From the IMG/VR virus record IMGVR_UViG_2724679462_000002, positions 79,741-143,740 of that record: a stretch of DNA of 64,000 bases. One strand, written 5' to 3'. Made by a program: the position numbers and the translations under genes. Positions 5,475-61,948 of this stretch are shown one piece after another (position 1 is the first letter of the stretch; the number at the start of each line of letters is the position of its first letter). The notes beneath the pieces were generated by a model, which saw only the letters and a program-made list of their open reading frames with translations, was not told the origin of the DNA and did no database searches. Source of the stretch: a virus (taxonomy: Duplodnaviria > Caudoviricetes).

Positions 5475-6692
5475 ATGACTGAACAGCAAGACAAGGCATA
5501 CGTCTACATCTTCCACAACCCTGAGACAGGCGATGTCAACGTAGGGAGTACAAAAGACGAAAAGTACCGCCAACGCAAACACCTTTCTGCGTTGAGAGGC
5601 GCTCGACACAGCAACTACAAATTTCAAAGATGCTACGCCAGGAAACCAAACTTCGAATTTGTGTCAATGGAAGTACCCGATCGGGATACCGCCCTCGCGC
5701 TCGAGCAATCGATCATTGACGAGTTTTACGGCTCACCATCCTTCTTGAACATTTCGAAAGACGCGGCTTACTGCAACGTGTGGCAGTCCCCTGCTTCAAT
5801 CGAACGAATGCGCAAGGCACTGACTGGGCGAAAACTATCTGCTGAACATATTGAGAAGTCGCGCCAAGGACTTCTTCGCCTCAACAGAAAGATGAGCGCG
5901 GAGCAGAAGGAACGCCTGCGGGAATGCTTCAAAGGCATTCCTTTGTCTGCAGCAACGAAAGCCAAGCTCTCTATAAGCGGCAAGGCTCGATTCGACGATC
6001 CGCTAGAACGGCTGAAAATCAGCGTAGGCCATCGCGGTAAGCTTCTAAGCGCGGAACATCGCGCGAAACTCAGTCTTGTTGCACGCGGTCGAAAAGACAC
6101 GGACGCGAAGAGGCTGAACATGCGACGCGGTAACGCATATCGATCAAAAAGCGTTCTAATCGACGGTACAACATACCGGACCTTAGCCGAAGCGGCGGAG
6201 GCACTCGGAGTGCACAAGACCACAATTACCAACCGTATCAAGGCCGGCCTGTACCAGGGGGCAGAACAACAGGATTCATCGATGCACCGCAAGATGACGA
6301 TCTGGACAATACAGCTGTCCAAGTGGCGATTAGCACGAGAACTCGGCATTCATCTCATCGACTGTACCGCTCGCTCGGGCATTTCCGCGTTTGCCCCACT
6401 CTTCGACGACGTCATGGCGTACAAGCGCGGCGTGCTCAGTGAGGAGCAATACACCAAACGTTACCTCGCACGGATGCGTCACTCGCGACGGGAACAATCC
6501 AAGGAATGGGAACGCGTCAAAACCCTGCCGGAAAGGATCGCCCTCGCGTGCTATTGCAAGGCCGGGGTCTTCTGCCATCGCCATCTCTTCCGAGACTTGC
6601 TCAGCGACTATCTCAAGGACGCCCAGTTCGAGGTGAAGTGCGCGGGCGAGCTCATCTCCTCGATCCCTCCACACGTAAAAGCAGAAGCATGA
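5475..6692 (+). CDS. GIY-YIG homing endonuclease (NUMOD3 repeats, HTH) fused in frame to a DUF488-like domain
   Basis: N-terminus YVY...NVGST...R..H...E...N; repeats such as KLSAEHIEK, KMSAEQKER, LSAATKAKLS; IDGTTYRTLAEAAEALG HTH; C-terminus IALACYC...FCHRHL typical of DUF488. Confidence 0.75.
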   Translation: MTEQQDKAYVYIFHNPETGDVNVGSTKDEKYRQRKHLSALRGARHSNYKFQRCYARKPNFEFVSMEVPDRDTALALEQSIIDEFYGSPSFLNISKDAAYCNVWQSPASIERMRKALTGRKLSAEHIEKSRQGLLRLNRKMSAEQKERLRECFKGIPLSAATKAKLSISGKARFDDPLERLKISVGHRGKLLSAEHRAKLSLVARGRKDTDAKRLNMRRGNAYRSKSVLIDGTTYRTLAEAAEALGVHKTTITNRIKAGLYQGAEQQDSSMHRKMTIWTIQLSKWRLARELGIHLIDCTARSGISAFAPLFDDVMAYKRGVLSEEQYTKRYLARMRHSRREQSKEWERVKTLPERIALACYCKAGVFCHRHLFRDLLSDYLKDAQFEVKCAGELISSIPPHVKAEA

Positions 6693-6964
6693 ATACGCTG
6701 GCAATCTTCGCAGGCTTCGCCCTCTTTCTTCCCTTCTATTTCTTAGTCGGGCTTTTCTGGCTCCGGTGCAATCCCGAAGTCGTTCGCATCATTCGGCGCA
6801 CGGCCGGGAGCGACCTGGTGTTCACCATTTCCTCGCTTGTCTTGGCGATCCTGTGGCCGGTCTGGTCAATCTACATCGGCATGGCGTACATTCGCGGTAT
6901 GCTGCGAATCATTCGTGAACAACGCGCGGTGAAGCACGATGAGTCACGTCCCGACGCCACTTGA
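6689..6964 (+). CDS. Small membrane protein (2 TM)
   Basis: ATGA overlap with the upstream stop; two hydrophobic segments. Confidence 0.65.
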   Translation: MNTLAIFAGFALFLPFYFLVGLFWLRCNPEVVRIIRRTAGSDLVFTISSLVLAILWPVWSIYIGMAYIRGMLRIIREQRAVKHDESRPDAT

Positions 6965-24135: not shown

Positions 24136-24182
24136 TTGACTTAGCGTCATGAGGGCCCGGGATTTCCCGGGCCTCTATGCTG

Positions 24183-25035: not shown

Positions 25036-25154
25036 TTTACTGGAGCTGTGACGTACACAGCATTCGCCGAGTGCTATTTAGGTCGCAGTTATTTTTTATC
25101 CCCGTCAGGCTTGTTATGACCAACCACAAGTCACAACCCCAAGGAACACCAACC

Positions 25155-26162
25155 ATGACTACGCATGAACGTGAACGCGGCCGTGTACGCCTTTACGCCT
25201 GTGGCGGCGCAGGCGTGAACGTAGGTCACAAAGTCGATCGCGTCGCGCAGAGCAACGACGAAGCGTTCGCCCAGCTCGACGTCGTATACATCGACACGTC
25301 GAAGTCGAACCTGCACTCCGACATCAAGGCAGAAAGCGTCTACCTGATCGACGGCCTCGACGGCTCCGGTCAAGTGCGTCGTGAAAATCACGGCGCCATC
25401 AGCGAGCGCGTGCGCGACATCCTGCAGACGTTCAAGCCGGTCGATCTCAACATCGTCCTTTCGTCGGCCGGTGGCGGTTCCGGATCAGTGATCGCACCTT
25501 CGATCGTTTCGGAACTCCTCGCGAAGGACTATCCGACGATCGTCATCTGTGTCGGCGATGACAGCACGAAGAAGTACAGCGAGAACACACTGAACACGCT
25601 GAAGTCCTACGACCAGATCGCGTCGACCGTACGTCAGCAGCCGGTCATCATGTCGTACCTGCAGAACAGCGCGGACATGACGCGCCCCGTCGTCGATCAG
25701 CGCGTGCAGCATCTCGTAGCCGCACTGTGCCTGCTCTTCTCGCGCCGCAACCGGGAGCTGGACTCGAAGGATCTGTACAACTGGCTGCACTACCAGAAGG
25801 TCACTTCGTACAAGCCGGCGCTCACCGCGCTCACGCTCATCGAAGACCTGAACGCCACCAGCCTCAGCAAGATCGGCAACCTCATCAGCATCGCGACGCT
25901 CACGATGCCTGACGTCGATCCGAGCCTGTCGCTGCGTCCGGAAGTGCAGTACGTCGGCTACATCGAGGGCGACACCGCCTCCGACAAGCTCAACATGCTG
26001 GCACCGTTCCACTACGTCACCTCCGACGGCGTCTTCGCGGAAGTCGCCGCCGGACTGAACACCGTGCTCCGCGAGCTCGAAGAGCAGACCGCCGCACGTC
26101 TGAACAAGGCAGGCATTTCGACCAGTGCTGATCAGGCTACCGATACCGGCCTGGTGTTGTAA
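25155..26162 (+). CDS. phuZ: PhuZ tubulin/FtsZ-like spindle protein
   Basis: YACGGAGVNVG, IDTS, DGSG, tubulin signature SAGGGSGS, ELDSKD and C-terminal DTGLVL; AAGGA RBS. Confidence 0.92.
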   Translation: MTTHERERGRVRLYACGGAGVNVGHKVDRVAQSNDEAFAQLDVVYIDTSKSNLHSDIKAESVYLIDGLDGSGQVRRENHGAISERVRDILQTFKPVDLNIVLSSAGGGSGSVIAPSIVSELLAKDYPTIVICVGDDSTKKYSENTLNTLKSYDQIASTVRQQPVIMSYLQNSADMTRPVVDQRVQHLVAALCLLFSRRNRELDSKDLYNWLHYQKVTSYKPALTALTLIEDLNATSLSKIGNLISIATLTMPDVDPSLSLRPEVQYVGYIEGDTASDKLNMLAPFHYVTSDGVFAEVAAGLNTVLRELEEQTAARLNKAGISTSADQATDTGLVL

Positions 26163-26800
26163 CTGGTGGCGGGATCTGATGCGCGGGCTGTGCTTAACCC
26201 CCGCGTGCCGGATTCTGATCAAACGCGGATACTCGTCAAAGACGGCGCATGACGTGCACATGCGCTCGTTCGTCCCCAAGCTAACTGCACACCCTAAAGA
26301 GCCGGATACCGCGGTCAAATGGAGGCCGTATGGACCCCACGCTCTGGCGGGTTTTGCCTGGGACATGACGAGTCCGCTCGCCAGATTTCTCACCTGACAT
26401 CGAACAAACAAGAAGCTTCTTTATCAGGAAGCTGGTCATCGCGAAGTGTGCTGACACGAGACTTGAGTTCAGCCACCCGAGGCATCGGGCTGGTCCCGAG
26501 AGGGAGCAATTGTTTCGAATGAGGTCCAAGGCACTGTCGCATCGATCGAGGTTCAGTGAGAACCAATCTACCGATCGTCCCGCAGGATCCGATTGCTCGG
26601 AGGACGGGATGATCCCAACCAGCCTGCGAAGGCAGGTTTGGAATGCGTTCGCGCTGAGCGCATTCCAAATCAACATCAACAGTTACGGACGACGGCGAGC
26701 CGGTATGCGCGATACCGGGCCAGACGAGCACGCCTAACCGGTTTGGGCATAGCAGCAGTCTGAAAAGGGCCGGGGGTGAAAAGTCCCCACGTCGTCCACC
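26163..26800 (+). ncRNA. Putative large structured non-coding RNA (element A)
   Basis: No credible ORF. Dense stems including 26231-26238/26366-26373, 26245-26251/26259-26265, 26637-26650/26656-26669 and 26687-26694/26790-26797. G-U pairs fit the + strand. Confidence 0.6.
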
Positions 26801-26816
26801 CGATCTAGGAGAAAGC

Positions 26817-27071
26817 ATGAGCGATAAACAGCAAATCGAAGAACGCGTTAAAGCCATCGTATCGGCTCAGCTTCAGGTCCCCGTCACGGACATCAGGAAC
26901 GAGGACACGATCGTCGCAGTCCTCGGTGCTGACTCGCTCGATGAAGTCGAGATGCTGATGGCAATCGAGGACGACTTCGGTTTGGACATCCTCGACGAGG
27001 ACGCGGAAAGCTTCAAGACCGTTCAGAGCATCATCGACTACGTCAAAGGCAAAGTTCCGGCCACGGTCTGA
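26817..27071 (+). CDS. acpP: Acyl carrier protein
   Basis: 84 aa, acidic; LGADSLDEVEMLMAIEDDFG (phosphopantetheine Ser in DSL) and TVQSIIDYV; AGGAG RBS. Confidence 0.9.
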   Translation: MSDKQQIEERVKAIVSAQLQVPVTDIRNEDTIVAVLGADSLDEVEMLMAIEDDFGLDILDEDAESFKTVQSIIDYVKGKVPATV

Positions 27072-27079
27072 TTTTTCTT

Positions 27080-27840
27080 AACCGGCGCGCGCCGCTTGCG
27101 GGAACTTGGCTCCCGCGCTGCGGTGCTCTTTTGTTGGGCGTCGGCGCGCAAACGGCGCGCCCTGCCCGTTGGGCGTGATGGTGAGCTAACACAATGTGAG
27201 GCCCGCGTTTGAACGTCACGCCCGCGCTACCTTGGCGCCGGTAGTCGCAGGGTTGAATTCAGTGCAACAAACTTAGGCTGCAGTAGTTTAGGTCTCGATC
27301 AATCCAAGTGATTGACTTCGATCAGATCGCCTGGGGAGGTGATGTGAGGAAGGCGCTCATACCTGATTTCAATCCTGCGTTTGTCCCAGTCTCCGTCACT
27401 CGCTACGCGCTGGTTGGCGCTGGCCGCGAGCGGGGCCCATTCCGAGACTGGATTCCATCAACATCCGCAAAACAACCGAAGAGGTCCGCCATGAAGTAGG
27501 TTAGCTCACGCTCCCATTTCCAGTCCGATTGACTGAAGCCATCCATCAAGTGACCCTCTAGTGAGTGGTAAGACATTCCGCATTCAGTCTGGAACATATA
27601 GCGTCCACCTACGCGGCTGCGCGGGCCTGGCACGAGCATCGACTCGAGCCAACAAGGCAGCGCGCAGGCTAGTGCTGGCCTAATTGCTGATCCACTGTTT
27701 GCACGACGTCGTGATGGTCTCCCAACTGCTCAGCGGGATAAAACAAAGAGCGTCTGTCTCCGTACTGCTCAGCCGGACACAGCAGAGCTACGGGCCAATT
27801 CCCCAGGATCGCATTACGCGAGGAGGGAGTTGGCCCTAAT
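27080..27840 (+). ncRNA. Putative large structured non-coding RNA (element B) with long-range pairings
   Basis: Stems 27171-27180/27214-27223, 27247-27257/27368-27378, 27386-27393/27444-27451 and 27792-27803/27825-27836; loop segments complementary to 27500-27509 and 27620-27628. Confidence 0.65.
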
Positions 27841-28012
27841 TGCCTTTTATGCCGTCAATTCAGCCAGCCAGTGAAACAAACGGAACCCGTGTAAAATCCC
27901 GGCCTGTTTGTTTTCCAGAATGCCTCTAAAAACGCTCAGAAACGCTTCTGACGGGCTCGTGCTGGGAAGTTTATATCTCCACGTCAAATCGTGTAGAGAC
28001 CAGGAGCCAGAA

Positions 28013-28393
28013 GTGTTTCGACAAGCCACTCTCATTCAGGACATCCGCGAGTTTTTCGCGATTATCCAACCGCCGTTGCTGGAAATATTCGAGCAAGACA
28101 ACGTCTGCTTCTCGGGAGCATCAATCGAGGACACGGTGGAATGGATCATCGCGCAGCAGATCGAGAACTGCTACGGCCTGTCCGTTCAAGGACACACCCG
28201 CGAGCGCTCGGTCTACAGCGCACTTCACGATCAAGTTGCGAATGCCTTGCCGTATCCCATCTCGTTGCCGGTTCGACAGTTAATAAAGGTGCCGTTGATT
28301 TACGACGACCAGTCCGTGAGCATCGATCTTCGAGGCACGGATTTGTACGTCTTCTATTACATCGACACCGCCCTCCTTTTCACTAGGCCATGA
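28013..28393 (+). CDS. Hypothetical protein (paralog array member)
   Basis: GTG start 28013 after AGGAG; C-terminal RGTDLYVF motif. Confidence 0.6.
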   Translation: MFRQATLIQDIREFFAIIQPPLLEIFEQDNVCFSGASIEDTVEWIIAQQIENCYGLSVQGHTRERSVYSALHDQVANALPYPISLPVRQLIKVPLIYDDQSVSIDLRGTDLYVFYYIDTALLFTRP

Positions 28394-39186: not shown

Positions 39187-39987
39187 GTCCTACCTGAATC
39201 TGTAACTTTTCTGACTCCCGCGAAATTCGAGTCAAAACTTGTTCGGCGTCGGACCGACCGGTGACGACTTAGGGTTTTGTAAGAAATCGCGCGCCCGAGC
39301 GAAGAGAATTTGCACGTTGACCGTGCGTCCACGGCAGCGCAAAACATAGACACGTTCCACCCATGTCAATAGGTTTTTCCGAACGTACGTGCTTTACAAC
39401 ACGGAACACGCGAAAAAAATACCTACTGAAAGGATTTCCGCCTGGACGCTCAGCATTTAAGCGTCTGCAGAACTAGATAAGGGCCACATCGGAAAGCTAC
39501 CTTACAACTAGATTCTTTAGAGTCAAATTTTGCAAGAAATTATTTTGATTTGATGACACAGGTTTACCGACGAAAGGAGTAAAGTGCGCGCCTCTTCACC
39601 GGATATCACGTTAACCCTTAGGTAAGTTTGACCGACCGTCGGACGTCTTCAAGTTCCGACGCAGCCAACAAAACCCGCTCTTCCGCACGACCAGAACGAC
39701 TACTCGCTCGACCTCTACGCACCGCCCGAAATAACTTCAAACATAACCAGCCCATACAAGCGCTCTGTTATCGCAATCGCAATCGACATTAACTTAGTAA
39801 AAAATTACGCCGCTCGGTATATGTTGTAGGAGAAGATCTAACCATCTGACCCATCGACCACAGTCGCAAGACTCGGTCGACCGGCAACCCCGTAATCCCC
39901 GTTGATAGTTTCTCTCCTCATTGAGGAGTGCTTAGACACGTCCGTATCAAAGCCTTTCGGCGACGCTGATTCTAAATAGTTTCAGGC

Positions 39988-39996
39988 ACATATCAC
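39988..39996 (+). promoter_or_regulatory. Phage promoter motif ACATATCAC upstream of chimallin
   Basis: Context CATATCACCACCCTGAC is shared with the copy at 50022. Confidence 0.7.
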
Positions 39997-40071
39997 CACC
40001 CTGACACTAGACAGAAAAGATTAGTGTTCGCGCGATCATTAACCTGATTTAGAGAAGAAAAGGAAACAACC

Positions 40072-42039
40072 ATGGCAGTCAACCACACTGGCAACAAGCA
40101 AGGCGCAGCAGCAGAAACCTCGATGGCCGCAGCATTCAGCCGCCAGCAAGACCAACCTGCGCAACAGCCGCAGCAGCAAGCCGCTGCGAGCGCCGCACAG
40201 CGGCCGATTCAGCGCACCCGTCTGTCGGATATCGGCAGCCTCTCGCGCGCGGCAATGGGCCGCAACCCGCAGAGCGAAGTCATCACGAAGCTCAGCAAGG
40301 CGCTCGAAGTAGCGTTCGCTGGCATCGACAAGAGCTACGAAGTCACGCTCATCCCGATCGACTACAACAACACGAAGTCGCTGGTCAAGTCGGTCATCGT
40401 CGTCGCCATGCGCGATCTGGTGAACAAGGAAACGGGCGTGGCGTGCCACACCCTCATCCTGGAAGGCTCGAGCGAGCCGCTGCAGGTCGGCTACCAGATG
40501 ATCAACAACCAGAACGTCGAAATTCTGCGTGTGAGTGGCGACTACAACAACAAGACGCTGTCGGACGAAGTCCTGAGCGCCGTGGCGCGCACGTTCGCCG
40601 GCATGCCGATCTGGCCGGTGGATGCATGCGTGGTGCCGCGCGACTTCAACGTCGAAGACCCGACGCTGGTTCACGAGCTGGCAGCGAATGCTGCGACGGC
40701 TTGCCAGACCGAACTCGAAGTTCGTCAGCCGGGCGGCTTCCAAGACGTGGACCTCGGCACCGTCGAGCATGAGAACTCGCTGACCGTTCAGCCGACGTTC
40801 GGCAACGGTCAGTCGCGTGACATGGTCGGCGCGCCGGTTCGCTCCGACATCGTCATCGACTTCCGCGCAGGCGGCCAGGAAATCCCGGGTCAGCAAGGCG
40901 AGACGCAACGCGTGAAGCAAATCTCGCGCATCAGCGGCTACATGGACCTCTTGTGGGCGCCGACCGAGCAGCAGACGCAACGTTTCGATCCGTGGGTTCA
41001 GCAAACGGCTCAGGCGTCGTCGCCCGACGAGTTCAAGCGTTACCGCCCGCGTTTCGTGATGACCGATCTCGAGTCGGTGCAGCTACTCACGATCCCGGCG
41101 CAACTCCTGGCGCTCGTGACGGCATTCACGCTGGCTGAGAACAACGCATGGGTCGAAGCATTCCGTCCGGCTCCGATGAACAACAGCGCGGAAGTGGACT
41201 GGAAGGACATCGGTGCGATCGGCATCGAAGCCAACTTCGAGAAGAACCAGAATGGCTTCGGTTCGCGCGTGGACACGAAGTCGGACGCGTTCCAGCGTGT
41301 TCAAGGTCAGGCAGGCGATCACCTCCTGCGTCTGGTCGGTTCGGTCATCACGCCGAAGCTGCTCCTCTCGCTGGACGTGCCCGAGTGCGGTCCGCAGACC
41401 TGGTTCAACGGCATCTTCGCAGCAGCCGCTGAGCTGAACGGCAACAACTGGCAGAAGGCGAATGAAATCATCATCCGTGCAGCGAACGTGCTCACGCATG
41501 GCAACTTCAGCCGCTACTTCCAGGCCGGCGCGCGTGTGGCGTCCGACGAATTCAACCGCATCCACCTGGGTTGGTACGTCGACCGTCATGGCGTGAAGCG
41601 CGATCTGCGCGATGTCGATTACCTGGCCGTGCTCAACATGGTCGGCGATCGCGATCCGGAAGTCGCACGCGAATGGTCGGACTCGTTCGCTCGCACCAAC
41701 CTGGATCTGCAAGTCCGTCTGGCGAAGCGCAAGCAGATCATCGAAGGCGTCCTCGGCAAGAACAATGTCGAGTTCACCGGCTTCGCACGCCGCGTGACCT
41801 TCGAACCGGCGTTCATCGTCGCGCTGCTCAACGCGTGCAAGGACACGGGCCTCTCGGTTCGCACCATTGCACCGATGACCGATCTGAACCAGTACGAGCG
41901 CGCGGTCAACCCGTACGCGATGTCGGCTGGTCTGGACACGTCTTCGCTGAACGGTTCGGTGTTCAACCGCGGCTTTGGGCATCAGCAGCAACAGCAGCAT
42001 GGCGCCCGCGCTGGCTTCAGCCGCTGGTCCCAGCAGTAA
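40072..42039 (+). CDS. chmA: Chimallin, major nuclear shell protein (phiKZ gp54-like)
   Basis: 655 aa, very biased codons, AAGGA RBS, own promoter and terminator, Q-rich flexible termini. Immediately upstream of nvRNAP beta' N, the conserved chimallin position. Call rests on synteny and size. Confidence 0.75.
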   Translation: MAVNHTGNKQGAAAETSMAAAFSRQQDQPAQQPQQQAAASAAQRPIQRTRLSDIGSLSRAAMGRNPQSEVITKLSKALEVAFAGIDKSYEVTLIPIDYNNTKSLVKSVIVVAMRDLVNKETGVACHTLILEGSSEPLQVGYQMINNQNVEILRVSGDYNNKTLSDEVLSAVARTFAGMPIWPVDACVVPRDFNVEDPTLVHELAANAATACQTELEVRQPGGFQDVDLGTVEHENSLTVQPTFGNGQSRDMVGAPVRSDIVIDFRAGGQEIPGQQGETQRVKQISRISGYMDLLWAPTEQQTQRFDPWVQQTAQASSPDEFKRYRPRFVMTDLESVQLLTIPAQLLALVTAFTLAENNAWVEAFRPAPMNNSAEVDWKDIGAIGIEANFEKNQNGFGSRVDTKSDAFQRVQGQAGDHLLRLVGSVITPKLLLSLDVPECGPQTWFNGIFAAAAELNGNNWQKANEIIIRAANVLTHGNFSRYFQAGARVASDEFNRIHLGWYVDRHGVKRDLRDVDYLAVLNMVGDRDPEVAREWSDSFARTNLDLQVRLAKRKQIIEGVLGKNNVEFTGFARRVTFEPAFIVALLNACKDTGLSVRTIAPMTDLNQYERAVNPYAMSAGLDTSSLNGSVFNRGFGHQQQQQHGARAGFSRWSQQ

Positions 42040-61337: not shown

Positions 61338-61787
61338 ATGTCAAGCATGAATCGCGTTGTCATTAACCGCATCACCCCCGTCGGGACCGCTATCGTGGAA
61401 ATGTTGTATCTCATGTTCCAACATCAGGGGTCCCCCCGTGGCAACACGCATATCACTCAACACACCGAGCGAAACATGCGGGTCACGCGCTTAAAGATGT
61501 TCGTCGAGAAGCATCCGGGCGGCCGCCACTTCGGCTGCCGCAATGCCTGGATCTGCGAGACGGATCGCAATGTGTTCAGTGTCTATTTGACGGACTATGA
61601 GCAAACGACCGATCTCTTCAAGGACCACCAGTGCCTCGAAGATGGACTCGAATTCCTGACCGGATACGAGTACGAGTTGTCGGAACTGTATCAAGCCTGC
61701 CAGGACATCCAGAATTTCCTGGTCGAAGAAAAGCTGCCGATGCGCGGTACCCACCGCGTACCGGAGCTCGTGCAAAAGGCGGCATAA
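61338..61787 (+). CDS. Hypothetical protein (alternative start ATG 61476)
   Basis: ORF with GAGG upstream; promoter-like GCATATCAC at 61448-61456 precedes the internal ATG. Confidence 0.55.
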   Translation: MSSMNRVVINRITPVGTAIVEMLYLMFQHQGSPRGNTHITQHTERNMRVTRLKMFVEKHPGGRHFGCRNAWICETDRNVFSVYLTDYEQTTDLFKDHQCLEDGLEFLTGYEYELSELYQACQDIQNFLVEEKLPMRGTHRVPELVQKAA

Positions 61788-61948
61788 CGCCGTGGTTGTC
61801 GCTGCCAGGGGGAAACCTCTGGCAGTTATGCCGTCTCTCTTTTTTTGCCGATCCTAAAAGGTTTCAGACCTATATGACGTCCCTGAACCACATGGAGTAT
61901 CTAAATGCTCCTGTGACGAATCTAACCATTCCTTCAGGGTCGTCAATC

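Follow-up and report, generated by a model that had tools for sequence, protein, structure and literature searches.

A conserved structured RNA, candidate for a new family, downstream of the acyl carrier protein gene in chimallivirus-like phages

Introduction

In chimalliviruses transcription takes place inside a protein shell and translation outside of it. To our knowledge, RNA handling in these phages is largely unexplained. Bacterial extragenic palindromes of the REP/BIME type occur as repeats in intergenic DNA, often between convergent genes; they are imperfect, with a base that is conserved and a top that varies. The giant ornate RNAs GOLLD and ROOL occur in bacteria and phages and are presented in a preprint as multimers seen by cryo-electron microscopy (bioRxiv 10.1101/2024.12.08.627333). 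Terminator hairpins of conserved sequence have been reported for phages phiKZ and 201phi2-1 (PMC11512511), and the late-promoter core of phiKZ is given as TATG with the start at G (PMC4666361). Here, we analyzed a non-coding block, element B, located directly downstream of an acyl carrier protein (ACP) gene in a 64,000-nucleotide (nt) stretch of phage DNA (positions 79,741 to 143,740 of IMG/VR record IMGVR_UViG_2724679462_000002), called the window in the following. Comparison with related genomes indicates that element B is a conserved folded RNA belonging to a family not yet described. With moderate confidence we take it (27080-27857, plus strand) to be a new large structured RNA at the 3' end of a transcript that would carry the genes for the tubulin PhuZ and for ACP.

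Results

Element B Is Conserved but Does Not Code for Protein

Related loci were retrieved with PhuZ and the protein encoded downstream of element B, yielding four IMG/VR contigs (L005, L006, L007 and L008). Three-sequence alignments comprise the window, L005 and L006, and five-sequence alignments comprise these together with L007 and L008. Element B is under stronger constraint than its neighbours. Its roughly 780 bases (27080-27857) are 86-88% identical among the window, L005 and L006, rising to 91-92% over 27525-27862; in the same three sequences identity is 73-84% in the ACP coding region, 82-84% in the downstream open reading frame (ORF) and 49-56% in the spacer 27863-27919.

The element does not code for protein. 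Variable columns fall on the three codon phases as 52/51/43 in element B, versus 21/16/45 in the ACP gene and 32/16/65 in the downstream gene, and indels are mostly 1-2 nt long. None of the 12 ORFs of at least 25 amino acids in the window's element B is in frame and stop-free in both relatives. The ORFs of the L007 and L008 counterparts gave no protein-level match in element B beyond the DNA match, and the two longest ORFs of the region (63 and 78 amino acids) gave no match in Pfam. The element is therefore conserved without a coding signal, as is generally expected of a structured non-coding RNA.

Compensatory Changes Support a Fold on the Plus Strand

Element B folds on the plus strand into five domains with compensatory changes. 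The three-sequence alifold energy is -284 kcal/mol on the plus strand versus -261 kcal/mol on the minus strand, a difference of 23 kcal/mol in favor of the former. One-sided replacements of G-U by A-U or G-C in the closing stem P1 of domain 5 point to the plus strand as well. Since the consensus was derived from the same three sequences the percentage of paired positions is biased, and the informative part is the number of pairs that changed on both sides and are still paired. There are 13 such pairs among the 236 of the plus-strand consensus, compared to a shuffle mean of 6.3±1.7 (0/500 shuffles reach 13) and to 0-1 when the partners are slid. Hairpin 27097-27117 contains an A:U to U:A exchange at 27103/27111. 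The stem 27246-57/27368-79 carries two compensatory substitutions and, in L005, a matched T/A insertion, and further both-sided changes are located in 27316-27352 and 27399-27434. In the irregular hairpin 27612-27674, T27618:A27666 is changed to C:G and, in L005, G27630:C27649 to A:U; the variants at 27618 and 27666 each occur in contigs from the soil runs X2 and X3 at similar depth. Compensatory changes exceeded the controls in the three-sequence test as well as in the five-sequence test described below.

The preliminary description of this DNA, made from the letters alone, had suggested a large ornate structured RNA instead of chance GC-rich hairpins and had named compensatory changes in homologues as a check. 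Such changes are present in the hairpin domain it described, in the stem 27247-57/27368-78 and in many other helices. Its general suggestion holds, given the conservation above that of the flanking genes, the missing coding signal, the compensatory changes and the preference for the plus strand.

Architecture of Element B

The positions of the domains and of the surrounding features are listed in Table 1.

Table 1. Features of element B and its surroundings (positions in the window).
Feature	Position	Strand	Description and basis
PhuZ (tubulin) gene	25071-26162		PHROG match 8.7e-89
90-amino-acid ORF	26125-26397		overlaps end of PhuZ
ACP gene, 84 amino acids	26817-27071	+	Pfam PP-binding 1.5e-10; PHROG acyl carrier protein 1.1e-20
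Domain 1	27081-27242	+	closed by ACCGGCGC/GCGCCGGT (27081-88/27235-42); alifold, pair counts
Loop segments GTGAGCTAAC, AGGCCCGCG	27181-90, 27199-207	+	5' arms of two candidate long-range pairings
Domain 2	27246-27379	+	closed by CGCAGGGTTGAA/TTCAATCCTGCG; three inner hairpins
Domain 3	27386-27451	+	hairpin CCAGTCTC/GAGACTGG with inner stem
Variable linker	27452-27499	+	66-69% identity, window versus relatives
Domain 4, most conserved part	27500-27701	+	91-92% identity
Domain 5	27705-27857	+	aligns in all five genomes; five-sequence alifold
P1 of domain 5	27705-18/27842-56	+	GACG.CGUGA.GGU with GCC..UUAUG.CGUC
P2 of domain 5	27720-27738	+	conserved loop AACUGCUCAGC
P3 of domain 5	27745-27790	+	variable; absent in L007
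P4 of domain 5	27792-27803/27825-27836	+	12 bp; conserved loop CCAGGAUCGCAUUACGCGAGGA
Tail TTTATGCCGTCA	27846-57	+	
Poorly conserved spacer (27863-27919), then leader	27858-28012	+	identity, alignment
Downstream gene, 126 amino acids, GTG start	28013-28393	+	five-homologue protein alignment, all beginning M[FHY]RQA
Chimallin gene	40072-42039		PHROG "nuclear shell protein", 3.5e-101
Palindromic module sites in the window	4078, 7631, 18673, 21612, 24174, 27846, 33439, 36070, 42110, 54697, 61779-61836		about 25 more in the contig

Domain 1 contains the hairpin 27091-27124, a variable hairpin (27135-27168) and a hairpin with a 33-nt loop (27170-27224), the one on which the preliminary description was centered; its stem 27170-80/27214-24 shows one-sided G-U changes. 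In L007 an equivalent closing helix of domain 1, TCGGCGCGCGC/GCGCGCGCCGA, is present with its end pair swapped. Two pairs of the closing stem of domain 2 and two more in its inner hairpin 27316-27352 are changed on both sides. The outer 8 bp of domain 3 are invariant, and its inner stem has two both-sided pairs. In a contig from a soil metagenome, 75 other letters replace the linker that follows (joint 27435>27502).

Domain 4 starts with TAGCTCAC (27500-27509), the 3' arm of the first candidate long-range pairing, and contains the hairpin GACTGAA/TTCAGTC (27531-37/27583-89), a conserved unpaired motif ACATAT...GTCCAC (27594-27608) and the long irregular hairpin 27612-27674, which includes the 3' arm of the second candidate pairing. 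At both hairpin positions L007 and L008 carry hairpins of unrelated sequence, flanking the same motifs.

In the five-sequence alignment of domain 5, 9/31 pairs are changed on both sides, seven of them in P4, versus 3.8±1.4 in shuffles (0/500 reach the observed value). A 32-nt direct repeat (78% identity; 27717-27748 and 27756-27787) duplicates the ACTGCTCAGC motif, of which L007 has one copy. A covariance model of domain 5 (R1) scored 88-181 bits in the four relatives and found a single copy in the whole bacterial assembly in which the phage contig is binned (G000); it gave no match in the records of phages FLC9, LucasX and RSF1 or in the contig L020. A 20-bit match in the contig L019 was rejected because it lies inside ORFs on the opposite strand.

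In L008 only about 570 nt separate ACP from the tail; domains 1-3 are missing there, and the conserved 3' core is present. The 5' part of L007 is longer, and most of it could not be aligned. It is therefore the 3' half of the element that forms the family core. Loops and unpaired motifs are conserved across the five genomes.

Element B Matches No Described RNA Family

Rfam was searched with the window at the gathering score, with 26700-28300 at E<=10 and with the loci of the four relatives and of FLC9 at E<=5. No family reached the gathering score in the 64-kb window, and no relevant match was found at 26700-28300 or in the relatives, which argues against GOLLD, ROOL, OLE, introns, riboswitches and known ribozymes. 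Membership in a ribozyme or known ornate-RNA family, as considered in the preliminary description, is thus not borne out by any Rfam model. A group I or group II intron was rejected for the same lack of an Rfam match; in addition, the ACP gene is full length with its own stop codon (PP-binding positions 1-67 of 67), and the downstream gene has its own conserved start. Because ACP is complete, an intron would have no exons to join. Full-text searches on jumbo and nucleus-forming phages, on Chimalliviridae and on ornate RNAs in phages gave no account of such an element; their scope did not extend to figures and supplements of the transcriptome papers, where long structured untranslated regions of related phages may be mentioned.

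Domain 5 Resembles a Genome-Wide Palindromic End Module

The tail TTTATGCCGTCA matches 15 sites of the window with at most 2 mismatches versus 3.8 expected (0/100 shuffles reach 15), and motifs of this type are mostly located directly 3' of a GC-rich hairpin. In the 143,740-bp phage contig (C275), of which the window is part, about 10 full palindromes ACGGCATAA-(GC hairpin)-TTATGCCGT were found, whose conserved flanks pair as the lower part of a long stem. In its general form the module consists of a variable hairpin, rich in GC, that is enclosed by the conserved base (A/G)CGGCATAA ... TTATGCCG(T/C), and it is the sole 8-mer family enriched in intergenic DNA. TTATGCCGT occurs with at most one mismatch at 52 sites of the 143.7-kb contig, 23 inside and 29 outside ORFs as drawn by longest-ORF tiling. 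Among the 29, 16 follow the end of a same-strand gene, 5 have only a downstream gene and 8 have neither; 10 of the 16 gene-end sites have no same-strand gene downstream and are typically located between convergent genes. Judged by this placement, the module behaves as a transcript-end signal that is often bidirectional.

The sequence of domain 5 marks it as an apparent enlarged copy of this module. In P1, the 5' strand GACGTCGTGATGG corresponds to an arm of the ACGGCATAA type in degenerate form, and therefore domain 5 looks like a module with about 130 nt of extra hairpins in place of its upper stem. P4 is followed by UAAUUGCCUUUUAUG. The generic terminator scan did not call P4 since its loop exceeds the 8-nt limit of the scan, and together with a sigma-70 scan it revealed nothing relevant on the plus strand. 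No copy of the module is present between the ORF at 24177, PhuZ, ACP and 27792, and thus one rightward transcript ending in domain 5 is the simplest reading.

A Proposed Structured 3' Part of the PhuZ-ACP Transcript

We propose that element B would be the long non-coding 3' part of a rightward unit comprising PhuZ, the 90-amino-acid ORF, an ORF-free block at 26398-26816 and ACP. It would be transcribed together with ACP, with an end at or near 27857, and the folded RNA itself would be the functional product. Such an RNA may serve as a stable platform, on which the loops (AACUGCUCAGC, CCAGGAUCG..CGCGAG) and the unpaired ACAUAU..GUCCAC motif could bind a putative protein or another RNA, while domain 5 would protect and define the 3' end.

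Several observations weigh against this proposal. Co-transcription, the 3' end and the stability of the RNA are all things that we infer from sequence. Only five genomes carry the element, and three of them are 82-88% alike, for which reason most of domain 4 is too conserved for a covariation test. By minimum free energy the single sequence surpasses its shuffles (20 per strand) with z = -2.6 on the plus strand, but with z = -3.0 its fold is equally good on the minus strand. In P1 all changes are one-sided, from G-U to A-U or G-C, so that none of its pairs is changed on both sides, and 3 of its 55 cells are unpaired; moreover, a transcript ending in the U-run before TATGCCGTC would be unable to form P1. 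The gene map on which the placement of the module sites is based is a crude one. Finally, the tail of element B contains TATG, which matches the late-promoter consensus reported for phiKZ (PMC4666361), and the module bearing it could serve, additionally or alternatively, as the start of transcription for the downstream gene. What differs from the phiKZ late promoter is that the module is found at convergent gene ends without a same-strand gene downstream; a promoter role would for this reason be at most an additional one.

A trans-acting function goes beyond the 3'-part reading and is in our view unlikely. According to this idea, an ornate RNA of about 0.8 kb would be cut or terminated from the PhuZ-ACP transcript in nucleus-forming jumbo phages of Burkholderiaceae-type hosts and would work as an RNA machine or scaffold, with 27181-90/27500-09 as a real tertiary contact. 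Examples would be a ribonucleoprotein with a phage protein (possibly ACP or its neighbours), a self-assembling RNA like ROOL or GOLLD, or an RNA involved in traffic between the phage nucleus and the cytoplasm.

The main rival is cis-acting control of read-through, to which we likewise assign a low probability. Element B would then be a long leader or attenuator, at which RNA polymerase either stops at P4 and the U-rich tail or reads into the sequence from 28013 onward. The switch would consist of mutually exclusive pairings, with P1 sequestering UUUAUGCCGUC, TAGCUC pairing with either copy of GAGCUA and GACUG with either CAGUC. Several alternative pairings do exist, domain 5 joins a strong hairpin, a U-rich tract and the gene-end motif of the genome, and GACGUCGUGAUGG, which is complementary to the tail, is preserved in each of the five genomes, where G-U pairs are exchanged for A-U or G-C. 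Antitermination in chimalliviruses is also suspected by the authors who described the transcriptome of 201phi2-1 (PMC11512511). However, 780 nt are several times the length of known attenuators or riboswitches, and the core is kept in L008 although the element has only about 570 nt there and lacks domains 1-3. Furthermore, 60-100 nt of unconserved spacer and a separately conserved leader precede the next gene, and no cis-regulatory family of Rfam was matched.

The Two Long-Range Pairings Are Not a Feature of the Family Core

The preliminary description had read one hairpin loop with two perfect long-range complements as a double pseudoknot or switch, that is, an ornate RNA in which the loop forms two long-range helices simultaneously or alternately, perhaps with ribozyme or self-assembling properties. 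We consider this model quite doubtful. All complementarities it lists are present at the positions given. The hairpin 27171-27180/27214-27223 has 10 bp including one G-U. In its favor, the complements are exact, GTGAGCTAAC (27181-27190) with 27500-27509 (pairing 1) and AGGCCCGCG (27199-27207) with 27620-27628 (pairing 2). The further stems 27247-27257/27368-27378 (one G-U), 27386-27393/27444-27451 and 27531-27537/27583-27589 are likewise in the sequence. The closing helix 27125-27135/27742-27751 can be drawn with a bulged T, but it is only 67-71% paired and deleted in L005, and was therefore rejected.

Complements of this kind do not stand out from chance expectation. The sequence 27072-27870 was shuffled 2000 times with its dinucleotides preserved, and a mean of 0.92 long-range perfect complements of at least 9 nt was found per shuffle; at least two were present in 475/2000 shuffles, and at least two with arms within 35 nt in 195/2000. 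Since shuffles yield them at 10-24%, the loop feature alone is not remarkable. In the three sequences both pairings are kept, which speaks for the model: 29/30 cells are paired in pairing 1, where L005 and L006 show a 1-nt bulge and L006 also has one mismatch, and 26/26 in pairing 2. The arms are nearly invariant and show no covariation (9/10 and 9/9 pairs never vary), and because 18/19 long-range pairs never vary, these counts argue neither for nor against the pairings.

Both pairings have competing structures. Hairpin 27612-27674, which has compensatory support and structural counterparts in L008 and L007, shares its base and middle with the 3' arm of pairing 2, and due to this overlap they cannot both form completely. 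For pairing 1 the competitor is a nested 6-bp helix, TAGCUC/GAGCUA (27785-90), which is kept in 92.6% of cells, slightly below the 96.7% of pairing 1. The RNAduplex energy of the window's loop with the downstream sequence also speaks for the model (-31.1 versus -24.8±2.8 for a shuffled target). The equivalent hairpin of L007 has a different 9-nt loop for which no complement was found, and RNAduplex energies for equivalent loop-to-distal pairings in L007 and L008 were no better than those of shuffles. Because L008 keeps the 3' core without the 5' part that carries the loop, the pseudoknots cannot be a feature of the family core. Pairing 2 probably does not form in the ground state, and its formation at all appears unlikely. 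For pairing 1 we hold formation to be a tentative option, somewhat less probable than its absence; in the lineage of the window it may serve to dock domain 1 onto domain 4, outside the conserved core.

Another contact is tentatively suggested by the sequences, between UGAGUGGU (27562-69) and ACUGCUCA in the P2 loop (27725-32) or in the repeat (27764-71). For this candidate, L006 changes U-G to C-G (alignment columns 532/739), the UGAGUA of L007 would turn G-U into A-U, and L008 contains CGACUCA in the P2 loop and UGAGUCG just upstream of domain 5.

A Function of the DNA and Lack of Function Are Least Probable

A DNA-level element, i.e., a replication origin, a packaging site or an array of protein-binding palindromes linked to PhuZ as centromeres are to the plasmid protein TubZ, is very improbable. 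Element B is located two genes downstream of the tubulin PhuZ, contains many GC-rich palindromes and ends in a domain that appears to be derived from a repeated palindromic DNA module. An origin or centromere is nevertheless unlikely since pairing is strand-asymmetric (G-U pairs favor the plus strand by the 23 kcal/mol given above), no iterated direct repeats exist beyond the one 32-nt pair, and the cumulative GC skew has no turn near 27 kb. In addition, compensatory changes preserve RNA-type pairs including G-U, and the PhuZ-bearing relatives LucasX, RSF1, L019 and L020 lack element B. Equally improbable is a region that has no function itself, be it the remnant of a gene or an accumulation of selfish palindromic repeats folding by chance, for which the spurious ORFs, the repeat family of the tail and the strongly different 5' parts of L007 and L008 could be cited, but which does not fit a single-copy element that is better conserved than its flanking genes and far above the adjacent spacer, keeps its unpaired motifs and loops invariant across five genomes and has no protein-level similarity.

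Genome Setting

The contig belongs to a chimallivirus-like (nucleus-forming jumbo) phage and is binned in a 9.4-Mb bacterial assembly. Besides chimallin and PhuZ, the window encodes several split RNA-polymerase beta pieces, a DNA polymerase and a terminase (Pfam and PHROG matches). Among named phages, Burkholderia phage FLC9 is the closest (42% identity in PhuZ). The order around element B is PhuZ, 90-amino-acid ORF, ORF-free block, ACP gene, element B and downstream gene, and element B is located directly 3' of the ACP gene in 5/5 genomes that have it (tblastn of ACP in L005-L008). The 90-amino-acid ORF has a counterpart in all five related loci (90-103 amino acids) with parts nearly invariant in DNA, and matches no Pfam family.

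The ORF list starts the downstream gene at 27908; the homologues place its start at GTG 28013. Thus, the non-coding stretch extends over 27072-28012. The longer form of the ORF (from 27908) has no Pfam or PHROG match. The sequence from about 27965 to 28012, upstream of the downstream gene, is almost invariant in DNA and includes AGGAG; it is likely a leader or ribosome-binding region. No recurrent promoter motif was found before the downstream gene, and the window contains no tRNA genes.

A second ORF-free block (26398-26816, 420 nt, 84-88% conserved) is located between the 90-amino-acid ORF and ACP and is probably the "element A" of the earlier reader. Its fold is better on the plus strand (-135.6 versus -115.8), and 6/119 pairs are changed on both sides. 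The ACP gene is therefore flanked by structured RNA blocks on both sides. The first block is replaced in L007 and L008 by genes for proteins of about 205 amino acids, each followed by an ACP gene. At 6502-8162 in L008 and 6459-7327 in L007 a gene for a protein of about 165-210 amino acids precedes an ACP gene, with two such tandem pairs in L008; one protein copy has a sub-threshold His_Phos_1 match (E 0.0016). A pseudogene origin was rejected, as tblastn with the 205-210-amino-acid proteins of L007 and L008 gave no match in the window at 26000-28000.

Elsewhere in the window, an ORF with homing-endonuclease PHROG matches (5475-6692; phrog_314, 9.2e-29) is located among phage genes. Directly upstream of chimallin lies an 885-nt ORF-poor gap that is AT-richer (39187-40071, 50% GC); used as a control, it is not unusually folded (z = -0.19), and it is possibly a promoter region.

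Relatives and Distribution

The core of element B is carried by five phage genomes, one of which, L008, is identical to a 286-kb contig of a Paraburkholderia sp. assembly (L014). Contig fragments with at least 80% identity were found in soil, rhizosphere and root metagenome runs; no RNA run is among the sequencing runs that contain the stretch. The soil and rhizosphere contigs from four runs are fragments only. The variants listed for them are mostly those of L005 and L006, and among the listed differences none provides a fresh test of the pseudoknot arms. L019 and L020, which are more distant (downstream protein 42-43% identical), have neither the ACP gene nor element B, and in LucasX and RSF1 PhuZ is not followed by a comparable gap.

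Blastn against INPHARED phages returned nothing at E<=0.1, and against 40 related bacterial genomes only GC-rich scraps of 20-28 nt; no second copy is present elsewhere in the host assembly. A strict domain-5 pattern matched no metagenome contig and, among genome contigs, only the copy of L008. A 19-nt word of domain 4 had one match, an unrelated contig with 44% GC that was rejected.

In FLC9 (L015), a 770-nt unannotated gap follows PhuZ (5994-6763). Compared with mononucleotide shuffles, which are a rough control, the fold of this gap is much better (z about -5), and the gap ends in a hairpin and TTTTTTTATGCCGTT. Homology to element B was not detectable in this gap beyond the TTTATGCCGT motif.

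Discussion

Element B would offer a tangible subject for the study of RNA-based functions in chimalliviruses, accompanied by a second structured block on the far side of the ACP gene. The few giant RNAs described from bacteria and phages would be joined by a new family. The palindromic module and its enlarged form provide a handle on the boundaries of transcription units in an uncultured phage clade. In practice, work on it is limited by the narrow distribution to five genomes and to soil and rhizosphere fragments.

Like the REP/BIME elements, the module is a repeated imperfect palindrome in intergenic DNA, often between convergent genes; unlike them, it is phage-borne, and element B as a whole is single-copy. 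With GOLLD and ROOL, as far as these are described in the preprint (bioRxiv 10.1101/2024.12.08.627333), element B shares a length of several hundred nt, multiple domains, conserved loops, a phage-borne location and the non-coding character. It differs from them in having no Rfam match even at E<=10 and no neighbouring tRNA genes, in its position after a protein gene inside an operon, and in being known only from five chimallivirus-like genomes.

A further comparison is that with the terminator hairpins of phiKZ and 201phi2-1, insofar as the published text characterizes them (PMC11512511). As in those phages, the last hairpin and tail of element B are part of a set of conserved-sequence hairpins that are spread over the genome at gene ends and are partly bidirectional. 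The ACGGCATAA...TTATGCCGT motif comes from our own scan and is likened to the published terminators by description. In contrast to these terminators, the upper stem in element B is replaced by about 130 nt containing two or three extra hairpins, and a further 620 nt of conserved structure are located upstream of it.

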